From positions 448,001-512,000 of the forward strand of contig CAWDOD010000011.1 in NCBI GenBank assembly GCA_963803805.1: 64,000 bases of DNA, read 5' to 3'. The translations under genes and the position numbers were made by a program. Below are positions 7,335-19,632 of this stretch, in pieces. Within the stretch, counting starts at the first letter, position 1. Each line of letters opens with the position of its first letter. The notes beneath the pieces are model-generated. The model had not been told where the DNA came from. It saw only the letters and a list, made by a program, of their open reading frames with translations, and made no database searches. This DNA is from an uncultured cyanobacterium. Lineage in GTDB: Bacteria > Cyanobacteriota > Cyanobacteriia > Cyanobacteriales > CAWCAG01.

Positions 7335-7496
7335 TGAGAAGATTGGGGGAAGTAATAAGTAATAAGTAATAACTTTTGAATATACTATTCCCCTTAGTCT
7401 ACGGTAGCGCTACGCAAACCCCTTTTCCCTTACCTCCTAAGATAAGCTAACTTAAGGGAAGATAGATAAAGTTTCCCATGCTTGGAAGATGATGAT

Positions 7497-9251
7497 ATGA
7501 CCTCAAGGGATGATTTAAGAGAGGCGATTAAGGCAGGCAAGTTAGCTGATGCCCTAGTGATGGCAATGAGTAATGCGGTAGAGTTGAACATCACTACCTG
7601 GATTACTTCAGAAGATAATAACTCAGAGTTAGCTAAGCAAAAAAAGCCAGAAAGAAGTCTGCGTAGTCAAATCAACTTAGTTGAGGGCAAAATCAAAAAT
7701 GAAGTAGGGGAACAATTTGTTGATAGCAATACCCATAAAGAATTGAAGCGGTTTCACCTCGAACAGGTATTGCAAGGCAATAAAACAATTAGAGATAATA
7801 TTGTAAGTTTACAAAAACTATTTCAGCTATTACAGGCAATCCAAAAACATCAAGGGGATAAAGCACTTTCTCAAGAAGCTTTACTAGATTTATTTAGTTC
7901 CACAGTTTCTAGTGAAGCAGAAATAAATCTAGTTTCTCCTGGGGCTACAACCCTAGAAGTAGAATCAGAAGAACCAGAGGTAGATGACGACTGGGATGAT
8001 TCTGTGTTGGATATTTTTGAATCTCTTCCTAATCAAGAAGCTTCAGATGATATTCCCTTTAGCCCTAATTCGGAAACGGAGTTAGTGATAGAAGCTTCGG
8101 GAAGCGATTTGTTGATGCCAACTCCAGAAATGCCAACTACTGATTTAGAAATAGAAGATTGGGAAGAAGCAAAGGTAGAATTTCAGTCTGTTGAGTCAGA
8201 GTGGGAAGATGAAACTACCGAAGAGAGTGTTTTGAGTTTAGATGATTTAGATGTTACCCCAGAAGAGGAAGAAGATTGGGGGGATTTATTAGAAGAAGAA
8301 GAATCTACATCAGCACAAAGATTAGTTGGGTTAGAGGAAGAAGTTGAAGTTGAGTTAGAACCAGAATTTGTTGTTAAACAAGAGAGGGATGCAATATCTC
8401 CTCAAGTTATTCAAGAGGTTATTGAGGAAGAGGAAGAGGAAGACTGGGGAGATTATTTAGTAACAGAAACTTCTGATAATCTAGAAAGTGTTGCTGAAGC
8501 GAGAGAGGATAATTCTTCTGAAATAGAAACCATTGAAGCAGAATCTGCGACAGTTATTCAAGAGGTTATTGAGGAAGAGGAAGAGGAAGACTGGGGAGAT
8601 TATTTAGTAGCAGAAACTCCTGATAATCTAGAAATTGTTGCTGAAGTACGAGAAGATAATTCTTCTGAAATAGAAACCATTGAAGCAGAATCTGCGACAG
8701 TTATTCAAGAAGCTATTGAGGGAGAGGAAGAAGAAGATTGGGGAGATTATTTAGTCGTAGAAACTCCTGGTGATTCAGAAATTGTTACTCAAGTACAAGA
8801 AGATAATTCTTCTGAAGAAGAAGATTTCTTTGTCACAGAAGCAAAAGCAAATGTTTTTGAATCTGAGTCCCTAACAGAAGATGATGATGAAGATTGGGGA
8901 GATTGGTTAGAAGAAGAAACTGATTCAATACCAGAGGAATTTGTAGAAATAACTCCTTCTGGTGTAACAACTTACCAAGCCCCCATTGTTCCTAACCTTG
9001 ACTCCTTAGACTTAGAAGATGATGATGATTGGGAAAAAGAGGAACAAACTATTGATACCTTTGCTGTTTCCTATGATGAGGCTACTTTGTTAGATTCAGA
9101 TTTTGAGGAAGATTGGGATGAGTTTTCTATTGAAGAATTAGAACCTTACTCTAACCTAAATATTGAGGAATCAAAAGAGCAACAAATGCCTTCGGAAACT
9201 GTTAAGGGCGACTTAAATCAAGATAAGGAAGATAAAACTAATGACAAATGA
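7497..9251 (+). CDS. Hypothetical protein, member 2: shared N-terminal domain plus long acidic low-complexity tail
   Basis: N-terminal ~120 aa paralogous to 6945..7334; E/D-rich tail with repeated EEDWGD motifs. Confidence 0.85.
   Translation: MTSRDDLREAIKAGKLADALVMAMSNAVELNITTWITSEDNNSELAKQKKPERSLRSQINLVEGKIKNEVGEQFVDSNTHKELKRFHLEQVLQGNKTIRDNIVSLQKLFQLLQAIQKHQGDKALSQEALLDLFSSTVSSEAEINLVSPGATTLEVESEEPEVDDDWDDSVLDIFESLPNQEASDDIPFSPNSETELVIEASGSDLLMPTPEMPTTDLEIEDWEEAKVEFQSVESEWEDETTEESVLSLDDLDVTPEEEEDWGDLLEEEESTSAQRLVGLEEEVEVELEPEFVVKQERDAISPQVIQEVIEEEEEEDWGDYLVTETSDNLESVAEAREDNSSEIETIEAESATVIQEVIEEEEEEDWGDYLVAETPDNLEIVAEVREDNSSEIETIEAESATVIQEAIEGEEEEDWGDYLVVETPGDSEIVTQVQEDNSSEEEDFFVTEAKANVFESESLTEDDDEDWGDWLEEETDSIPEEFVEITPSGVTTYQAPIVPNLDSLDLEDDDDWEKEEQTIDTFAVSYDEATLLDSDFEEDWDEFSIEELEPYSNLNIEESKEQQMPSETVKGDLNQDKEDKTNDK
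8406..8820 (+). repeat. Intragenic 147-bp (49-aa) tandem repeat, about 2.8 copies
   Basis: GTTATTCAAGA... unit starts at 8406, 8553 and 8700. Confidence 0.9.
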
Positions 9252-10101
9252 ACTTAAAAGGAATACTAATGAAGGAGATATTTCCCATTTTAGTTTACAA
9301 AAAAGTCTCAATAATTTTGTGGCTTCTATGGGTAATGTCCTCACGGATATTACGGCATTAGAAGTAAATACCATGGTAGTTGACCACATTAGTGGTGACA
9401 AGTTTATGCCTTGGAAAACTTATCAAGATATCTATGCCATTGATCGGGCTTATTTAAAACAACACGAGGTTCATCAATCTTTGTGGGAACCTTATATGGA
9501 ACTACGCAAAGAACTCGAACTTAACTATATGTCTCTTCTTGGTGATCCAGATTCTAGCTTATACAGTCCCCAAAAAGTATCTTCTATGAAAGGGGAATCT
9601 GAGGCGATTAGCGATCCGAATGGGACAATGGAAGAGATGGTTACAGGATTGCCAAATCCTTTCGATCAAGATAGTCCCAAAGAACAAGGAGATATCCGTA
9701 GTTTGTTTGCCGATAGTCGTTTCTTGCGCTGTTTGCGTAAAATGGGAGAATTGAAAACTGCTTTAGATAATCGCAACCGTTCCTTAATTGAAGAAACAGC
9801 AGAACATGAAAGTTATGTAGCTTCGGAAGTCATTGAAAATACGGTTAAAACTGATATTATCTATGCTCAAACAGTAATTCAGCTTGATGGTGATATTATT
9901 AACCGTTTTTCCGATAAAATATTCGATCATCCCCATCGAGATTTAATTCTACAAATCCACAAAATTAGTGTCGAAAATGGTGAAAAAGAATGGCGGGGTT
10001 TATTGGGATTTGTTATTGATATAGTCCAAGCTGGTTTAGAAAAAGGTATTGGTACTGGGCTAAATTTTATAGGACGTAGCAATAATTCTGACAAAAATTG
10101 A
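9241..10101 (+). CDS. Hypothetical protein, member 3 of cluster
   Basis: Overlaps upstream stop; TALEVNTMVV and AQTVIQLDGDIINRF motifs. Confidence 0.85.
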   Translation: MTNELKRNTNEGDISHFSLQKSLNNFVASMGNVLTDITALEVNTMVVDHISGDKFMPWKTYQDIYAIDRAYLKQHEVHQSLWEPYMELRKELELNYMSLLGDPDSSLYSPQKVSSMKGESEAISDPNGTMEEMVTGLPNPFDQDSPKEQGDIRSLFADSRFLRCLRKMGELKTALDNRNRSLIEETAEHESYVASEVIENTVKTDIIYAQTVIQLDGDIINRFSDKIFDHPHRDLILQIHKISVENGEKEWRGLLGFVIDIVQAGLEKGIGTGLNFIGRSNNSDKN

Positions 10102-10247: not shown

Positions 10248-11027
10248 GTGAACAATAATCGTCTTCAAAAAGAAACAGAGAAAATAGATTCTCAAAAGAG
10301 CGTAGGCAAAGCCCACCGGAGATATCGCCATTTGTTAAAAACTTTAAATTTGGATGATTATATTCAAGTAATTAAAGAACGAGATCAGCACAAGCAGGAA
10401 GTTATTTACGGTTTTAATCTTAACTTGAATTCAGAAGTAATTTCTTTATTTAAAGAAGTCCAAACAGATAAAATTACTGTTAAACTTAGCAAAAAATTAC
10501 TCAATGATTTTCGCTACTATGCTCTTTTTGGTCAAGGAAATAGCTTTGATACAGGAATGACTTTTTGTACTTATTACCAGCAGGATGACTTTTCTCAACC
10601 AGTAATAAGAAGTTTTATTTCTCTTGATGGAGATATTGTTCAACAAATTGGCAATGATTGCTTAACTTCGCCACAACTTACCTTAGATATTATTCGCACT
10701 CACTATTGGTTAATCAACTGTTTAATTGCTGAATTACGCCTAGATATGACCAATAAGTTAAATGGGATTTCTTGGTTACTATCTTTATTAACTGTAGGAG
10801 GATTTAGTGCTACTAATTTAGAACAAATTCAAAACTTAGACCCAATTACCTATTTTGTACCAATTATTATGTCTTGGTTTTTTAAACAAGGTTTTCAAAG
10901 ATTACTATGGTTAATTGTACCTCGTTTAGGACGTTGGTTTGTACGGCAAATGTTATTTGGTATTTTCTCAAAGACGCAAAAAATGAGAGAAATGGCTTTG
11001 AAGGTTTTGGGGACAATTGGAGTTTGA
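10248..11027 (+). CDS. Hypothetical membrane protein, member 4 of cluster
   Basis: RSFISLDGDIVQQIG motif; hydrophobic C-terminal segments. Confidence 0.8.
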   Translation: MNNNRLQKETEKIDSQKSVGKAHRRYRHLLKTLNLDDYIQVIKERDQHKQEVIYGFNLNLNSEVISLFKEVQTDKITVKLSKKLLNDFRYYALFGQGNSFDTGMTFCTYYQQDDFSQPVIRSFISLDGDIVQQIGNDCLTSPQLTLDIIRTHYWLINCLIAELRLDMTNKLNGISWLLSLLTVGGFSATNLEQIQNLDPITYFVPIIMSWFFKQGFQRLLWLIVPRLGRWFVRQMLFGIFSKTQKMREMALKVLGTIGV

Positions 11028-12257: not shown

Positions 12258-12324
12258 TAATCAAATAAAAAATTCTGTTAAACTAAAGTTGTTTAAATAC
12301 TTTTTTAGTAAATATAATTAATTG

Positions 12325-12888
12325 ATGGAATTAGTAAATATTTCTCTAATCGGTGTTGGTTTAGCGGCTGATGCTTGTGCTGTTTCTTTAAGTAGCGGTT
12401 TGGTTATTAGACATATTAAAATCAATAAAGCCCTGAAAATTGCCTTGGCATTTGGCATCTTTCAAGGAATAATGCCTTTAATTGGCTGGCTAACTGGATT
12501 GGCTTTTCGTGAATTTATTATCTATGTAGATCATTGGATTGCTTTTATTTTACTAACTGTTATTGGTGGCAGAATGATCTATCAAGCTTGTCAAGAAGAA
12601 ACGGAAACTAAATTTAATCCCTTAGATAACTACACTTTATTAGGACTAGCGATCGCAACTAGTATAGACGCTTTAGCCGTTGGCTTAAGTTTGTCGGTTT
12701 TAAAAATTTCCATTCTTTCAGCAGCAGCGATTATTGGTATTATCACTTTTGGTTTATCATTAATCAGTGTTTATCTGGGACATAAATGGGGAAATCTCTG
12801 TAAGTTGAAATTAGAATTGATCGGCGGAGTTATTTTGATTTTTATTGGTAGTAAAATTTTGATGACTCATTTGTTCAATAATGGCTAA
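12325..12888 (+). CDS. mntP: Manganese efflux pump MntP
   Basis: LAADACAVS, QGIMPLIGW, DHWIAFILL, IATSIDALAVG motifs. Confidence 0.93.
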   Translation: MELVNISLIGVGLAADACAVSLSSGLVIRHIKINKALKIALAFGIFQGIMPLIGWLTGLAFREFIIYVDHWIAFILLTVIGGRMIYQACQEETETKFNPLDNYTLLGLAIATSIDALAVGLSLSVLKISILSAAAIIGIITFGLSLISVYLGHKWGNLCKLKLELIGGVILIFIGSKILMTHLFNNG

Positions 12889-12983
12889 TTGTTCATCAAA
12901 AGTAGGAAAGAGTTACCGTTTTTTTCAACTAAGAGAACTCCCATAAATCAACAAATAAAATATCCTCACCAAGTATAAAATTT

Positions 12984-13030
12984 TAGCAACTAGCCATTAG
13001 CAACTAGCAACTAGCCATTAGCAACTGCTA
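12984..13030 (+). repeat. Heptameric STRR-type repeat (TAGCAAC/TAGCCAT)
   Basis: About 6 tandem heptamers; same family at ~35236-35266 and ~17589-17618. Confidence 0.8.
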
Positions 13031-13086
13031 ATATACAAAATATAGAAGGTTCGTCTGCGTAGAAATAACTATAATCTTTTAAGCTT

Positions 13087-16000
13087 ATGCCAGTAATTAC
13101 GGTTCGGGAAGAAGGGCAGACGGAGACAGGATTTAGGGCTAGTTTACATTTTGATGGGGTGGGGAATTTTCCTTTAACTATCACCGAACCCTTTACATCG
13201 AAGCAGGAAGGGGAGTTGGAGTGGTATTTTGAGAGGTGGTTGAATCGCCCTCACCTGAATCAAGTTAAGGCAGAAAGGGCGGCGGGGAGTGTGAGAGATT
13301 ATGGGGAGGATTTGTTTAAGCAGGTATTTAAAAGTGATTTTGATGCTTATGGTGAGTATAAGCAGTTGCGGGGGAATTTATCAGAAGTAGAAATAGTGAT
13401 TGAAAGTCGTACTCCGGAGTTTCAGGCTTTGCATTGGGAGGCGATGTTAGATCCGGATTTGCCTCGCCCTTTGGCTGTGGATGCGGTGATGGTAAGGAAG
13501 ACGGTTAAAAGGGTGGCGGTAGAAGGAGAGGTTGATGTTTCTCCGGTGATTAATTTGTTGGTGGTGACTGCCCGCCCGAATGAAGATGATGATATTGCTT
13601 ATCGGGCAACTTCTCGCCCTTTAATCGCTGCAATTGAGAATAGTCAAGTGCCTGTGAATGTGGATTTGTTGCGCCCTGGTACTTATGAAGCTTTGGTTAG
13701 GCATTTGGAGGAAAAGCAGGCGGGTTTTTATCATATTATCCATTTTGATGGACATGGTAGTTTGGCGAGTTATGAACAGTTAAAAAGTATTGTTGAGAGT
13801 CCTTCTAAGCTGCTTAAGCGCTACGGTAGAGAAGATTTAGAAGCTTATGAAGGGGTGAAAGCTTTTCTCTATTTTGAAGGAGAAAAGAAAGGGAATGCAG
13901 ATCCGGTGGAAGCGCAAGAGTTTACTGATTTGTTGACGGGAAAGAGGATTCCGGTTTGCATTTTGGATGCTTGTCAGTCGGGGAAGCAGATTAGGGAAAT
14001 GGGGAAATGGGGAGATGGGGGGAAAGAGGAAGCGGAGATTAATGGAGGCAGAGAATCTTCCCAAGACAATTCTAGAGATTCCTCCGAGGCGGAAACTAGC
14101 CTGGGTAGTCGTTTGATGGCGGCGGGGATGCAGATGGTTATTGCTATGAGTTATTCTGTCACTGTTTCGGCTGCTGGGTTGTTGATGGCAGAAATGTATC
14201 GTCATCTTTGTGACAAAAAGTCTTTCCGGGAAGCCATTAGGTTGGGGCGGTTGGAGTTGTTTAACAACAAGGAGAGAAAGGCTGGTTGGAATCAAACTAT
14301 TAAATTAGAAGATTGGTTATTACCAGTGGTTTATTCCCATCGCCCTGTTGAATTGGGTTTGCGGGAATTTACCCCCCAGGAAGAAGAGGATTTTTATAAT
14401 TCCCAAGGGGATGAATATCGCTTTCCGCAACCGGAATATGGTTTTCTGGGGAGGGAGTTGGAGATATTGAAGATTGAAAAGGCTTTGTTGCGCCACAATA
14501 TCCTTTTGTTGCAAGGTATGGGAGGGACAGGCAAAACTACCCTGTTGAATTATTTGCGGGAATGGTGGCAAGTTACCAACTTTGCGGAGAAGATATTTTA
14601 TTTTGGTTATGATGAGAAGCCTTGGAGTTTAGAACAAATTGTTCACAACTTGGGTAAGGGAATTTATGACAGGTTTAAGCAAGCAAGCTTCCAAGCCATG
14701 AATCCCAAGGCACAGGCACAGAAGTTAATTAAGGAGTTGAAAAGTAACAATTATATTCTCATCCTCGATAACCTAGAATCTGTGACGGGGCAACAGTTGG
14801 CAATTCAAAATACCCTGACGAAGGAACAACAGGAAGAGTTACGCAACTTCCTTAGCCAGTTAAAGGGCGGTAAAACTAAAATAATTTTCGGTTCCCGCAG
14901 TGGGGAAGAGTGGCTGCAAAAGCAAACCTTTCAAAGCAACAGCTATCAACTCCCCGGCTTAGATCCCCAATCCCGTTCAACTTTGGCAGAGAGAATCTTG
15001 CAACGTCAGGTAGGGGATGAGGAAAAGATTACTAATTATCGCCAAAGTGAAGATTTTAACCGCTTGATGACATTGTTGGGGGGTTATCCTTTAGCCATGG
15101 AAGTTGTCTTAGCTAACCTGAAGCAACAAACTCCCACGGAAGTTTTGGCAGGGATGGAAGCCGGGGAAATTGCTTTGGATAGCGGGAGTGAGGAGAAGAC
15201 GGCGAGTATTGTTAAATGTGTGGAATATTCCCACAGTAACTTATCTCCGCAAGCACAAAGGTTATTGTTGTGTTTAGCACCTTTTCGGAAATTTATTGAT
15301 AGCCGGGATATTCCTAATTATGCCAAGCAGTTGCAGAAGTTAGCACCTTTTCAAAGTTACGACTTTACTAACTTTGCTGGGGCGATTGAGGAGGCGATTA
15401 GTTGGGGTTTGCTTTCGCCCATGGGAGATGATTCTCCTTTGCTGACGATACAGCCGGTATTTCCCTATTTTTTGAAGACGAAATTAAAAGAATTGGAGGA
15501 GGAGACTGGGGCAGCATTGGAGGAGGGGTTTAAAAATCATTACGTTGCTTTGGCGAATTATTATAATCATTTGATGGAGTCTAAGGAGGCGGAAAAGAGG
15601 AAGTTAGGCATCTTTTTCTGTGGCTTGGAATATGAGAATCTTTATAGTGCTTTGCAGGTTTGTTTGCGGAAGCAGGAAACTGTGGATATTTTCTTTTGCT
15701 TGGATCAGTACTTAGAGTTGATTAATGATATTCCTAGTGGGTTGAAGTTAGCAGAGTTTGTGGTTGAGGTGCAGGTTGCTTATCCGGAAGAAATTAGAAG
15801 GGGTGAGATAGGTTGGGAAATAGTTATGGCACAGGATAGATTGGCTTACTGTTACTTGGAAATGCAACGTTACCAAGAAGCTAAGGAAGCTTATGGGAAA
15901 GTAGCAGAGTTGTCTCAAGAATTAACAGGAATAGAAGAGAAGGAAAAGCAAAAGTATTTAGCTACTACCCGGCATAACTTGGGATATGTAGCCCAGGAGT

Positions 16001-16776
16001 TACGGGAGTTTGCCCAGGCACAGCAGTACTATCAACAAGCTTTGGATATCAAAATTGCCTATGGGGATACCCACTCCCAAGCTAGTACCCTGCATCAGTT
16101 GGGAAGAGTGGCACAGGAGTCACGGGAGTTTGCCCAGGCACAGCAGTATTATCAACAAGCTTTGGATATCTATGTTGAATATGGGGATACCTACTCCCAA
16201 GCTGGAACCCTGCATGACTTGGGATATGTAGCCCAGGAGTCACGGGAGTTTGCCCAGGCACAGCAGTACTATCAACAAGCTTTGGATATCAAAATTGCCT
16301 ATGGCGATACCCACTCTCAAGCTAGTACCCTGCATCACTTGGGATATGTAGCCCAGGAGTCACGGGAGTTTGCCCAGGCACAGCAGTACTATCAACAAGC
16401 TTTGGATATCAAAATTGCCTATGGCGATACCCACTCTCAAGCTAAAACCCTGCATCACTTGGGAATGGTGGCACAGGAGTTACGGGAGTTTGCCCAGGCA
16501 CAGCAGTACTTTCAACAAGCTTTTGATATCTATGTTGAATATGGCGATCGCTACTCCCAAGGTGGAATCCTTGGACAATTAGGCTTGTTAGCAGAGGCTC
16601 AGGAGGATTATGAGCAAGCAAGGAGTTATTTGCAGCAAGCTTTAGAGATTTATGTAGAGTTTCAGGATGAATATTATATTGAGGTGGTGCAACGGAATTT
16701 GGAGAGGCTGGGGAATCGGGAAAAGGAAGTGAAAAGATTGCTGTTGAGATTAAAAGCTTTTTACGAGAATCTTTAG
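13087..16776 (+). CDS. CHAT (caspase-like) protease - STAND/NB-ARC NTPase - TPR protein
   Basis: HFDGHG and LDACQSG catalytic motifs; Walker A GMGGTGKT; Walker B LILDNLE; GGYPLAM; C-terminal TPRs. Confidence 0.92.
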   Translation: MPVITVREEGQTETGFRASLHFDGVGNFPLTITEPFTSKQEGELEWYFERWLNRPHLNQVKAERAAGSVRDYGEDLFKQVFKSDFDAYGEYKQLRGNLSEVEIVIESRTPEFQALHWEAMLDPDLPRPLAVDAVMVRKTVKRVAVEGEVDVSPVINLLVVTARPNEDDDIAYRATSRPLIAAIENSQVPVNVDLLRPGTYEALVRHLEEKQAGFYHIIHFDGHGSLASYEQLKSIVESPSKLLKRYGREDLEAYEGVKAFLYFEGEKKGNADPVEAQEFTDLLTGKRIPVCILDACQSGKQIREMGKWGDGGKEEAEINGGRESSQDNSRDSSEAETSLGSRLMAAGMQMVIAMSYSVTVSAAGLLMAEMYRHLCDKKSFREAIRLGRLELFNNKERKAGWNQTIKLEDWLLPVVYSHRPVELGLREFTPQEEEDFYNSQGDEYRFPQPEYGFLGRELEILKIEKALLRHNILLLQGMGGTGKTTLLNYLREWWQVTNFAEKIFYFGYDEKPWSLEQIVHNLGKGIYDRFKQASFQAMNPKAQAQKLIKELKSNNYILILDNLESVTGQQLAIQNTLTKEQQEELRNFLSQLKGGKTKIIFGSRSGEEWLQKQTFQSNSYQLPGLDPQSRSTLAERILQRQVGDEEKITNYRQSEDFNRLMTLLGGYPLAMEVVLANLKQQTPTEVLAGMEAGEIALDSGSEEKTASIVKCVEYSHSNLSPQAQRLLLCLAPFRKFIDSRDIPNYAKQLQKLAPFQSYDFTNFAGAIEEAISWGLLSPMGDDSPLLTIQPVFPYFLKTKLKELEEETGAALEEGFKNHYVALANYYNHLMESKEAEKRKLGIFFCGLEYENLYSALQVCLRKQETVDIFFCLDQYLELINDIPSGLKLAEFVVEVQVAYPEEIRRGEIGWEIVMAQDRLAYCYLEMQRYQEAKEAYGKVAELSQELTGIEEKEKQKYLATTRHNLGYVAQELREFAQAQQYYQQALDIKIAYGDTHSQASTLHQLGRVAQESREFAQAQQYYQQALDIYVEYGDTYSQAGTLHDLGYVAQESREFAQAQQYYQQALDIKIAYGDTHSQASTLHHLGYVAQESREFAQAQQYYQQALDIKIAYGDTHSQAKTLHHLGMVAQELREFAQAQQYFQQAFDIYVEYGDRYSQGGILGQLGLLAEAQEDYEQARSYLQQALEIYVEFQDEYYIEVVQRNLERLGNREKEVKRLLLRLKAFYENL
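15961..16680 (+). repeat. 120-bp (40-aa) TPR tandem repeats: five near-identical plus one diverged cap
   Basis: Units start at 15961, 16081, 16201, 16321, 16441, 16561. Confidence 0.95.
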
Positions 16777-16988
16777 CAACGGAACTACACTTAGTATCTG
16801 GTCAAATTTCTAATTATCGTCTAGCCTTAGCTGATGCTGGAATTGAGAGAAAACTTTATCTAGCTGTTGTCAGTCAAGCTTATCAAAAGATAATTGGTAA
16901 GCGGTTTGCACAAAGAATTATTGAATATAATCAGATTAATATAATTGTTGTTGACTCTATCAGAGAGGAGGTAGTGCAGTGGCTTTAG
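16731..16988 (+). pseudogene. xisH: 5'-truncated XisH family gene (not in ORF track)
   Basis: Translates EKIAVEIKSFLRESLATELHLVSGQISNYRLAL...RKLYLAV...IIVVDSIREEVVQWL*; lacks the N-terminal part; directly upstream of xisI. Confidence 0.85.
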
Positions 16989-17305
16989 ATTACGCAAAGT
17001 TGGTTGAAGATATTATAGAAAAACGTCACCGGAAAAGCTCTCCCGGTCAAGTTAGAGTAGAAAAAGTTATCGATAGAGAGAATCAACATTATCTTTTAAT
17101 CCAAGTAGGCTGGAAAAACAATAAATGTCACTATGGTTGTCTTTTGCACCTAGATATAATCGACGGCAAAATCTACATTCAGCAAAACAATACCGAAGAT
17201 TTTATTGCTCAGAACTTAGTGGAATTAGGAGTGCCAAAAAGTGATATTGTTCTGGGTATTCACGCTCCTTTTGAAAGACAGTTTACCGAGTATGCTATCA
17301 GTTGA
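16979..17305 (+). CDS. xisI: XisI family protein
   Basis: HYLLIQVGW, HLDIIDGKIYIQQNNTE, LVELGVPKSDIVLG. Confidence 0.92.
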   Translation: MALDYAKLVEDIIEKRHRKSSPGQVRVEKVIDRENQHYLLIQVGWKNNKCHYGCLLHLDIIDGKIYIQQNNTEDFIAQNLVELGVPKSDIVLGIHAPFERQFTEYAIS

Positions 17306-17370
17306 GCAATGAGGTAGTTATTAGCTGTTAGCTATTAGCATCGGTTTTAGTTTTTTCCTTTTGGTAAAAA

Positions 17371-17580
17371 TGCGATCATGGTGGGGAGATTTGGAGCTGA
17401 TGGAGTGCGATCGCGGTGGGGAAGTTGGAGTTGTTGAGGTGCGATTTGATTCTCCAACCGCCAAGGATTAAAATCCCTGGCTAACAGCCCAAGTCATCTT
17501 AAAGATGACTACCAAGTACGGGGATTTTTTCTAAGTGCGATCGTATTGGAGAAGTTGGAGTTGTTGAAGTGCGATCGCAC
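17371..17580 (+). repeat. HIP1-anchored ~34-bp repeats interrupted by a REP-like double hairpin
   Basis: GCGATCGC-NGTGGRGAAGTTGGAGTTGTTGARGT units at 17372, 17407, 17537; CCAAGGATTAAAATCCCTGG and AGTCATCTTAAAGATGACT palindromes at 17461-17510. Confidence 0.8.
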
Positions 17581-17710
17581 TATCTTAACCATTAGCTATT
17601 AGCCATTAGCTATTAGCAATCGGTTTTAGTTTTTTCTATTTCGTGATAAAGCGATCGCACTTTTGCTAGTTTTGTATAATCAAATCATCAGCTTCGTCAA
17701 CACAACAAAA

Positions 17711-18028
17711 ATGACTTTTATAAGCACTGACTACAAATACATTCAAATTAATGAAAACAAAGTTCCTATCATTGCTGGAACCACCATGAAAGTAGTCGAA
17801 TTAATCACTTCAGTTAAAGCTTATAATTGGACTCCCGAACAACTCCACCAGAATTATCCATACCTTTCTATGAGTAAGATTTACTCTGCTTTGGCTTACT
17901 ACTGGGATCATCAAAAAGAACTTGATACAGATATGGAAAGACGTTATCAGTTTGCTGAGAAAATGCGGCGAGAAGCAACCCATACTTCTTTAGCTGAAAA
18001 ACTAAAAGCTAGAGGGTTTGTCAAGTGA
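17711..18028 (+). CDS. DUF433 family putative antitoxin
   Basis: PIIAGTTMKV, TPEQLHQNYPYLS..IYSALAYYWDH. Confidence 0.9.
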   Translation: MTFISTDYKYIQINENKVPIIAGTTMKVVELITSVKAYNWTPEQLHQNYPYLSMSKIYSALAYYWDHQKELDTDMERRYQFAEKMRREATHTSLAEKLKARGFVK

Positions 18029-18373
18029 CTATAGCTCTTTATATGGATGAGCAAGTCCCCAAAGCCATTACTGTTAGTTTACGACAAAGAGATGTTGATG
18101 TTCTCTCTATTCAAGAGGATAGTCGCAGTGGCTACCCTGACCCCATTTTACTTGACCGGGCAACGGAATTAGAAAGAGTTATGTTTTCGCAAGATGACTC
18201 TTTCTTAGCTGAAGCACATCGCCGTCAAACAGAAGGAGTAGATTTTGCTGGTGTTATCTATGCTCATCAAAAAAAATATTTCTCTTGGAGATTGTATCCG
18301 CGATTTGGAAATAGTTGCTAAGGTTTTGGAACCAGAGGATTGCGCTAATCTTGTGCATTATCTCCCTCTATAA
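18025..18373 (+). pseudogene. DUF5615 PIN-like toxin, frameshifted at an A8 run
   Basis: LYMDEQVP..D..LLDRA..SQDDSF; removing one A at 18269-18276 gives QKNISLGDCIRDLEIVAKVLEPEDCANLVHYLPL*. Confidence 0.85.
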
Positions 18374-18384
18374 ACAGTATTTTG

Positions 18385-18457
18385 TAGCGATTATCTCAGA
18401 AGTTGGAGTTGATGAGGTGCGATCGCAGTGGAGAGGTTGGAGTTGTTGATCGTCGAT
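18385..18457 (+). repeat. Two more HIP1-anchored repeat units
   Basis: GAAGTTGGAGTTGATGAGGTGCGATCGCAGTGGAGAGGTTGGAGTTGTTGA. Confidence 0.75.
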
Positions 18458-18732
18458 ATAATTTCGCCCCCCGGCCCCAATCTGGGAAAGAAAATAACTT
18501 AAAGTTTCAGCAACGCGCGATCGCTTGGATAAGGTAAGGAAATTTAGTTATCAACTTGGCATAAAAAATGAGTTTGCATGAGCCAACTTGACAATTTTTG
18601 CGTAAATACTCTTAATTTATTTTCTTGATGAAGTTGCTTTTTTGCTATTTACTTTGTGAGGAAAATAATTTTAACATAACAACGAGGCAACTAAAAGCAA
18701 GAATCTATACAAAAGAATAAAGGAAAGTACTG

Positions 18733-19632
18733 ATGAAAACTCTATTCCCAAGCATCACCATTGCCACCATCACTGGCACTATCGTCAGTCTAGGGGCAAT
18801 AGCTAATCCTGCTGAAGCTGCTAGCTTCAACTTTTCTTATACCCTCAATAGCGGAGATATCATCAGTGGGATGCTAGAAGGGGAAGTTCAAGATGATAAT
18901 GATACGGTCATCGTTTCAGAAATTAGTATGCCCAGCTTAAACGATGAACTTGGCCCCGAATTGCCTTTTATTGAATCTATAGCTGAAATTGTTTCAGGAC
19001 TTGATTTGGCCACCTTACTTAGGTTACTCAGCTCAGACTCACCTTCTTTCGGATCTTTAGTTGACCTTACAGCAGGGCCTTCTGGAACTCCAAAAGTTAG
19101 CTTCAGTGGCTCAGTTATGGATATTATCACCTGCTCTCTTCCAGAATGTGATGATGGCTTTGCGTTTGAAAGTAAGGGTTTGTTTATTGGTGGTGCGCCT
19201 TTTTTCAGTAGCAGTCCATCTTATGGTAATAGCCCTGCTGAACTCTATGATCCAACCAATTGGCAGCTTACAGCTAAAACCCCAACACCTGAACCAACCC
19301 CAACACCAACTCCAACACCAACTCCAACCCCTGAACCAACCCCAACACCAACTCCAACCCCTGAACCAACCCCTGAACCAACTCCAACCCCTACACCAAC
19401 TCCAACCCCAACCCCAACTCCAACTCCAACCCCTGAACCAACACCAACTCCAACTCCAACCCCTGAACCAACCCCAACCCCTGAACCAACCCCAACACCT
19501 GAATCAACACCAACTCCAACTCCAACCCCAACATCAGAACCGACTTCTATACCAGAACCAACTTCTATATTAGGTCTTCTCGCTATGGGTGCTTTGGGGG
19601 TTGCTTCCAAATTAAAGGGCCGCAAAAAGTAG
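18733..19632 (+). CDS. PEP-CTERM sorted surface protein with long Pro-Thr linker
   Basis: Signal peptide ending AEA-A; (PT/PE)n tract; [25 protein letters not shown]. Confidence 0.93.

Follow-up and report, generated by a model that had tools for sequence, protein, structure and literature searches.

A cyanobacterial CHAT–NB-ARC–TPR protein as a probable NLR-like protease switch, encoded without the small membrane-protein neighbour of its relatives

An unbroken reading frame in the genome of an uncultured cyanobacterium raises the question of whether a single bacterial polypeptide could sense a ligand and answer with proteolysis in the manner of an NLR, and on what such a protease would act. 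The gene lies on a 64,000-nt stretch of contig CAWDOD010000011.1 (positions 448,001 to 512,000, assembly GCA_963803805.1), hereafter the window, in whose own numbering all positions below are given unless a contig is named. An earlier note, made from the letters alone, had read it as an effector–STAND–sensor protein with an intact caspase-like CHAT protease, probably ligand-activated and serving defence or cell death, with its target unknown. Our analysis favours, with a probability of roughly 0.6, a single-chain, NLR-like, ligand-gated protease switch whose probable membrane effector or substrate is missing here; a function in defence or cell death is what we would infer from this. As far as sequence analysis reaches, the interpretation as an NLR-like protease switch is supported. 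The architecture itself has already been published. What is new is a small neighbouring gene in homologous loci, here called P1, and its absence from this locus.

The gene is intact and encodes a CHAT–STAND–TPR protein of 1229 amino acids, from a 3690-nt frame on the forward strand with no internal stop (Table 1). A homologue search scored 7999 candidates, 1122 of them at E ≤ 0.001, and the 119 other homologues listed share 54–78% identity with the query, mostly over 91–100% of its length. We aligned the 120 best proteins with MAFFT. The catalytic residues His223 and Cys296 are each kept in 119 of these, the single exception having no protease region, and Lys483 of Walker A, Asp561 of Walker B and Pro668 of the GxP motif are conserved in all 120. 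Sequence, conservation and predicted fold thus bear out the effector–STAND–repeat architecture with an intact dyad that the earlier note had described, its positions for HFDGHG and DACQSG proved correct, and the Walker A/B and GxPLA motifs that it listed are present. The gene is an unexceptional example of a large class already known, and one of 39 CHAT matches found by a profile scan of this 5.3-Mb assembly. It has no close paralogue in its own genome, where the runner-up match is 27–29% identical.

Table 1 Positions of the features in the window, and homologous loci with P1
Feature	Position (nt)	Strand	Basis or remark
Whole gene, CHAT protease + NB-ARC-type STAND NTPase + TPR sensor	13087..16776	+	open frame, Pfam, homologues
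N-terminal three-strand sheet and helical region before the protease core, residues 1-100	13087..13386	+	AlphaFold2 model
CHAT caspase-like protease core, His223 (nt 13753), Cys296 (nt 13972)	13387..14346	+	Pfam, AlphaFold2, Foldseek, conservation
Disordered length-variable insert after the catalytic Cys, residues 302-334	13990..14088	+	low pLDDT, homologue gaps
NB-ARC-type STAND module (nucleotide-binding domain, helical domain, winged helix, further helices)	14419..15801	+	model, Foldseek, motifs
TPR sensor array	15802..16776	+	TPR_12 and TPR_10 matches
Heptamer-type short tandem repeats, family D4	12983..13024	.	related copies 17314-17341, 17592-17619
P1 loci (homologous loci outside the window)			L022, L023, L024, L029, L031, L035, L036, L042, L043, L049, L054, L055; G016, G017, G023

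The protease assignment draws on three kinds of evidence. The Pfam CHAT profile (PF12770) matches residues 100–403 with 61.5 bits (cut-off 24; E 1.2e-16), and the same protein scored 64.2 bits in the genome-wide scan. His223 lies inside the HFDGHG motif, which begins at residue 219 (nt 13741), and Cys296 inside DACQSG, which begins at nt 13966. An AlphaFold2 model of residues 1–450, built from a 23-row alignment, reached a predicted local distance difference test score (pLDDT) of 79.3 and a predicted template modelling score (pTM) of 0.81; in it, strand 217–221 leads into His223 and strand 290–293 into Cys296. Searching this model against the PDB with Foldseek gave 40 matches at E ≤ 0.001, ranked as Csx29/TPR-CHAT, SAVED-CHAT, separase, DdvA, gingipain, MALT1 and caspases, with caspase-9 and caspase-3 among them. 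A profile of the same region found nothing significant among PDB sequences (best E 0.17). By profile, dyad placement and modelled fold, the region is a member of the CHAT family, and proteolysis is its predicted activity. Ahead of the core, residues 1–100 are strongly conserved in the family and have no Pfam family of their own; strands 3–11, 15–22 and 25–33 and helices between residues 38 and 100 are modelled there with block pLDDT of 80–95. Behind the catalytic cysteine, pLDDT falls below 50 across residues 298–336, where most homologues are gapped and the window protein has the longest stretch. By its position, this insert would correspond to the intersubunit linker of caspases.

The closest solved folds, Csx29/TPR-CHAT of the type III-E CRISPR Craspase (8eey_B, E 1.5e-7) and SAVED-CHAT (8tl0), resemble the window protein in that a CHAT protease is turned on by an upstream sensor. 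They differ from it in being activated through RNA-guided Cas7-11 or cyclic oligonucleotides, not a fused NTPase, and identity is only about 10–13%.

The central region carries the marks of a STAND switch. Walker A (GMGGTGKT, residues 477–484) and Walker B (LILDNLE, 558–564, with LILD at 558–561) are followed by GSR at 602–604, invariant in 19 of 19 sequences, whose arginine comes after the strand that follows Walker B, and by GGYPLA from residue 665, with the GxP at 666–668 including Pro668. We take the GxP, in the helical domain, and the arginine after Walker B to be STAND motifs. A model of residues 445–906 (AlphaFold2, pLDDT 83.3) retrieved the NB-ARC domains of plant NLRs first in Foldseek, led by resting-state NRC2 (TMq 0.50) and then Sr35 and ZAR1; Apaf-1, CED-4 and MalT came after these, and NLRP3 and NOD2 lower. 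The sole sequence-level match of this region in the PDB was the NB-ARC protein 9h2l_A (E 1.5e-6). Because of this ranking and this match, we assign the switch to the AP-ATPase/NB-ARC kind, not the NACHT kind. Where an MHD-type histidine would be expected on the winged helix, after a hairpin at model residues 332–344, the family has an invariant Gln-Pro (residues 789–790), an equivalence taken from topology and not from structural superposition.

The C-terminal TPR array, which the TPR_12 profile matches with 138.5 bits in a Pfam scan of the whole protein, contains five near-identical 40-residue repeats at nt 15960–16561, which Tandem Repeats Finder reports as 5.0 copies of a 120-nt period with 88% matches. 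Of the three domains, the array diverges most: its identity to the two closest homologues, themselves 77–78% identical to the window protein, is 67–74%, whereas the other two reach 82–84%.

The family is patchy and mostly cyanobacterial, and this member of it is an accessory gene of foreign composition. Searches of the same-genus genome G001 and the same-family genome G002 did not find it. Full-length relatives of at least 57% identity occur in 3 of 40 related genomes (G016, G012 and G023), with fragments in two more, and 16 of 301 evenly sampled genomes of the phylum carry the gene at E ≤ 1e-100, a lower bound because only three candidates were scored per genome. G133 and G008 were apparently missed in this count, since the family's TPR tail adjoins P1 there. 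Members are found in Microcystis, Prochloron and Crocosphaera, none of which is filamentous, and relatives of 35–47% identity in metagenome-assembled genomes labelled Theionarchaea, Desulfobacterales, Rhodobacteraceae, Aminicenantes and Chloroflexia, where binning errors are possible. Nine plasmid records carry relatives, and no phage record does; two of these relatives, on cyanobacterial plasmids, are about 60% identical, and one of the two has an integrase gene on one side and a transposase gene on the other. The distribution is therefore not the core, invariant one that the earlier note had named as speaking against its view: it is patchy and reaches plasmids.

Composition agrees with this picture. 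GC content is 0.43–0.44 and GC skew +0.23 to +0.30 across 13–17 kb, compared with 0.34–0.35 and +0.09 to +0.13 directly upstream. GC content at third codon positions is 0.46 in the gene, the maximum in the window, and 0.19–0.39 in the 32 other tabulated ORFs (open reading frames); its G-over-C skew at these positions, +0.47, is likewise the highest of the 33. As the third-position G excess is the highest, amino-acid composition cannot by itself account for the G-richness, which the earlier note had already noticed and which is confirmed here. The gene also lies in a 7.6-kb segment of the window, 12.1–19.7 kb, that has no synteny with the same-genus genome; there, the genes on its two sides, upstream of about 12.1 kb and downstream of about 19.7 kb in the window, are some 150 kb apart.

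Several members of the family are decaying. Split or truncated copies were seen in G017, G022 and G101, others at L107 (G092) and L113 (G266), and a copy on a Nostoc flagelliforme plasmid (H2) is broken by a transposase. One copy has an in-frame TGA, and others are spread in pieces over separate contigs. Such copies point to frequent decay in the family.

We then turn to what such a protease might act on. Clustering of the ORFs of 30 homologous loci together with those of the window yielded P1, a protein of 142–163 residues that adjoins the CHAT-NLR gene. A profile search placed it beside the family gene in 15 loci (Table 1); if only the 18 loci with flanks of at least 1.5 kb on either side are counted, 6 have it. 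The closest relative with genome context, G016 (65% identity), has it. P1 has a conserved N-terminal part of about 85 residues followed by two hydrophobic stretches with a short proline-containing loop between them, and two invariant cysteines; it is predicted to be helical, with the hydrophobic helices as a C-terminal pair. Its orientation relative to the large gene varies among convergent, divergent and co-directional, and we therefore think of functional coupling rather than a shared transcript. In a 24-sequence FastTree phylogeny with the Aminicenantes sequence as root, P1 accompanies both deep and shallow branches. The window protein stands there beside the Prochloron copy, whose downstream flank is missing.

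P1 recurs across the phylum. Among the 301 sampled genomes, 48 have a match at E ≤ 1e-5, and 28 strong places lie in 26 genomes. We examined the context of 26 strong places: eight are beside a CHAT-NLR of the window type, two beside a TPR tail of that type (short flanks only), six beside a second CHAT–STAND–TPR clade that is 27–30% identical (two confirmed by Pfam), two beside TPR remnants, and three at contig ends. The mobilizable plasmid p3 of Calothrix sp. PCC 7716 carries the CHAT-NLR/P1 pair between integrase and transposase genes, with both genes of the pair annotated as hypothetical. In the source genome, a 1296-residue paralogue on contig C10 (297046–299298, reverse strand) shares 27–29% identity with the window protein across the protease and NTPase regions, an identity resembling that of the second clade paired with P1 elsewhere.

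P1 has no Pfam match at E ≤ 1 and no NCBIfam match, and in the ESM Atlas it falls among unnamed, mostly cyanobacterial clusters. The PADLOC candidate PDC-M35B matches weakly in 9 of 13 P1 sequences, over most of the profile (best E 1.1e-6); no model of PDC-M35A matches the large protein even at E ≤ 10. PDC-M35 is not mentioned in the literature searched. Weak P1-like matches of 122–170 residues in many genomes of the phylum sample suggest a broader family of small proteins from which P1 may derive. A second small neighbour, P2 (152–177 residues, two or three hydrophobic segments), takes the place of P1 in three loci of one subclade (L020, L033 and L039), where it lies upstream and divergent, and weakly matches PycTM (E 3e-6). 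Three further loci (L019, L025 and L061) hold intact family members without an adjacent partner.

From these neighbourhoods, P1 is the likeliest candidate for the cleaved substrate and membrane-damaging effector of the family. The earlier note's statement that the target is unknown can accordingly be refined for the family, for which a conserved small membrane neighbour has emerged in homologous loci; the locus here lacks it. Its other statement, that no gasdermin-like substrate is adjacent, holds for the window: no gasdermin-like ORF was found in the gene's flanks. A genome-wide search with PF04598 gave no match and is uninformative, because control genomes were silent too. MntP (12322–12888), considered as a membrane partner, was rejected, being a true Mntp-family protein (E 4e-49) that does not recur beside homologues. 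A complex prediction for P1 and the CHAT region, from an alignment led by G016 whose first row starts three codons before the methionine, gave 0.01 against a mark of 0.32 and, having no controls, counts neither way.

Known bacterial systems offer a model for the missing step. The STAND-fused proteases KrAvs12 and SsAvs4 cleave the small, latent, non-enzymatic proteins EACC1 and Pepco, respectively, releasing a membrane-permeabilizing fragment, according to the part of the preprint at hand (PMC12642450). P1 and P2 fit this small-partner role by position and hydrophobicity. The window has no such small partner beside the protease gene, whereas homologous loci have P1 (15) or P2 (3). In contrast to EACC1 and Pepco, which that part of the preprint describes as beta-strand or beta-barrel proteins (PMC12642450), P1 is predicted to form a helical hydrophobic hairpin. 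We rejected P1 as an EACC1, Pepco or Bell domain for now, given the absence of a family match and its helical, hydrophobic character as opposed to their beta-rich one. A bolder proposal, which we regard as tentative and rather doubtful, is that P1 proteins are undescribed, protease-gated hairpin death effectors serving at least two divergent receptor clades, with the window gene an intact receptor-protease that has lost this effector and must therefore have other targets in the cell. In that case, P1 would be a functional helical analogue of gasdermin, EACC1 or Pepco.

The mechanism that we favour for the NLR-like protease switch can be laid out as follows. Apaf-1, plant NLRs and bacterial Avs proteins serve as the models. 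In the resting state, the NTPase would keep the protein closed, as a monomer. A ligand, probably a phage or other foreign protein, would bind to the TPR array, release autoinhibition and permit nucleotide exchange and oligomerization; the CHAT domains would thereby come into proximity and proteolysis would be turned on, so that the infected cell would stop growing or die. The ancestral system may have comprised two genes, the second being P1 with its approximately 150 residues, as the neighbourhoods suggest. Because small membrane neighbours recur, cleavage of a latent membrane-active protein is the family's likely downstream step, by analogy with EACC1 and Pepco as described in the available part of PMC12642450. 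At this locus, the protein would act on other targets in trans, or would be an orphan sensor-protease.

A number of results weigh against this proposal. First, the genomic setting gives little help. The earlier note had the gene opening an accessory island; the segment is indeed non-syntenic and variable, but it is not a defence island, because the PADLOC matches of the 19 neighbouring ORFs in the window are only generic, domain-level ones (PLD, methyltransferase and ClpB-type AAA). Around 18 homologous loci, 150 neighbouring ORFs gave only scattered defence-like matches, for which there is no background control. The protein itself matched no named Avs, AVAST or bNACHT system model in PADLOC v2.0.0, a library that includes AVAST models and lacks Avs families named after 2023. 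It drew a generic TPR model, mad8 and two C3a models as whole-protein matches, and its protease region none at E ≤ 10. The PADLOC check proposed with the earlier note thus returned generic TPR and AAA matches but no named defence system. Second, the Pfam profiles for the switch narrowly miss their thresholds (NB-ARC 23.0 bits against 23.5, NACHT 23.0 against 26.7). Third, the family is conserved along its whole length, with 54–63% identity across orders, and is less diversified than many arms-race sensors; the ratio of nonsynonymous to synonymous substitutions among the five TPR repeats, 0.40–1.37 over 40 codons, is too noisy to decide. Finally, the link with P1 has gaps. P1 is usually convergent or divergent to the large gene and so not co-transcribed; at 5 of the 23 assessable strong places no CHAT-NLR lies within 7 kb, and SNF2, UvrB and cyclase genes are among the neighbours there; and neither P1 nor P2 was found in the window. 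The genome's only P1-like sequence is a distant relative of 123 residues (E 1.2e-5) about 106 kb upstream (contig C11:355197–355544, reverse strand; locus L066, 1483–1854), with a single C-terminal hydrophobic stretch, in what looks like a housekeeping setting amid folK-like, NUDIX-like and kinase genes as read from their translations.

The alternative that survives best, though still unlikely, keeps the mechanism and changes the trigger: a death switch of multicellular bacteria, acting in self/non-self recognition or under stress as in the heterokaryon incompatibility of fungal NLRs, whose TPR array would sense a protein from kin or from stress and not one from a phage. The near-identical internal repeats and the lack of a surrounding defence island would suit it. 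The occurrence of the family in the non-filamentous genera named above does not, and the sequence offers nothing that separates a kin or stress trigger from phage sensing. NLR-like proteins with NB-ARC and TPR domains are, in the available part of Dyrka et al. 2020 (bioRxiv 10.1101/2020.01.06.895854), typical of filamentous or aggregate-forming bacteria and likened there to fungal NLRs, whereas the characterized bacterial STAND sensors covered by the available text of PMC13581612 sense phage proteins.

We consider it improbable, and place it next, that the window gene is a functionally dead orphan whose partner was lost through rearrangement at the locus. The absence of P1 and P2 here, a genome empty of P1 save for the distant relative just described, a position at a synteny break bordered by short repeats, and the decay of other copies (G017, G022, G101 and the Nostoc flagelliforme plasmid) all point that way. 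Against it stand the long frame without a stop, in which the catalytic and nucleotide-binding motifs are all intact, and the three partner-less relatives, which are likewise intact.

Least probable is a HetF-like regulatory or developmental protease that would cleave a host regulator on an internal signal and have no defence role: non-immune CHAT proteases do exist in filamentous cyanobacteria, HetF of Anabaena degrading PatU3 and coupling cell division with heterocyst differentiation (available parts of PMC9457339 and PMC8406250), not all of the 39 CHAT matches in the genome need be immune, and the family is conserved over its full length, but the gene is patchily distributed and was not found in the same-genus and same-family genomes, has plasmid relatives and foreign codon composition, carries a STAND switch and a repeat sensor that are not part of HetF as described there, and recurs beside a small membrane protein, not a regulator.

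The NLR-like protease switch that we prefer has precedents in architecture. The available part of Dyrka et al. 2020 describes all-in-one bacterial NLR-like proteins with an N-terminal CHAT or caspase-like domain, NB-ARC (AP-ATPase) and TPR or WD40 repeats, and cites Koonin & Aravind 2002 for this class (bioRxiv 10.1101/2020.01.06.895854). The window gene belongs to it, sharing domain order, families and a home in multicellular or aggregate-forming cyanobacteria; this family and its P1 neighbour are not mentioned in that part of the paper. Fusions of caspase-like effectors to Apaf-1-like STAND modules are alike in that the effector is linked in cis and not recruited through CARD, and their closest examples are cyanobacterial, yet their sensors are beta-propellers and not a TPR array (available text of PMC13581612). 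CHAT is not mentioned in that text, and neither CHAT nor caspase nor "Cyanobacteri" in its text-form supplements. The literature searched held no experimental work on this CHAT–NB-ARC–TPR family and no description of P1, although preprint supplements may list such families.

Cyanobacterial NLRs with a caspase-like protease fused in cis are candidate bacterial roots of apoptosome and inflammasome logic. What our analysis adds is a two-gene context conserved among relatives and missing here: the family gains a concrete unit, a receptor-protease with a membrane-hairpin protein of 150 residues, intact on the mobilizable Calothrix plasmid, and the source genome supplies a natural partner-less copy for comparison. 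Should P1 prove to be cleaved and to kill, proteolysis-gated bacterial immunity would have one more type of effector; should it not, the conserved neighbourhood would still want an explanation.

Besides the CHAT-NLR gene, the non-syntenic segment contains MntP, a XisI gene, a DUF433/DUF5615 pair and a PEP-CTERM protein. Heptamer repeats of TTAGCAA/CTAGCCA-like sequence, and 61-nt repeats containing GCGATCGC, lie around the CHAT-NLR gene and the small genes that follow it, at 12983–13024, 17314–17362, 17391–17581, 17592–17640 and 18403–18463. Short stretches of these repeats have dozens of copies in the same-genus genome, and those around 12949–13025 have many. The heptamer repeats may be boundaries of the variable segment, and both kinds of repeat may be substrates for rearrangement. 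A promoter and terminator scan of 12700–17400 gave fewer sites than in shuffled sequences and none ahead of 13087, and an Rfam scan of the entire window returned 0 matches. An expression look-up listed no RNA data set and one DNA metagenome run with 0.85 of the words.

The XisI-family gene (16979–17305, forward strand; Pfam E 2.8e-37) starts 200 nt past the CHAT-NLR gene; the single promoter-like site of the scan (16867–16894) lies ahead of it. XisH is the usual companion of XisI; this copy is solitary, with no XisH-like ORF before it, and the same-genus genome has matching DNA at a distant place. The overlapping DUF433 and DUF5615 genes (17663–18028 and 18025–18321, forward strand, by Pfam) have the layout typical of a toxin–antitoxin-like module and no PADLOC match. 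The PEP-CTERM protein (18733–19632, forward strand) has a long Thr-Pro/Glu-Pro repeat; its gene contains an 18-copy repeat family spaced at 12/18 nt, and the match to its DNA in the same-genus genome is at an unlinked place. Outside the segment, three forward-strand ORFs (7482–9251, 9241–10101 and 10248–11027) encode proteins of 589, 286 and 259 residues with no Pfam or PADLOC match; they share 84–89% DNA identity with the same-genus genome, and the 589-residue ORF has an unusual third-position G excess.

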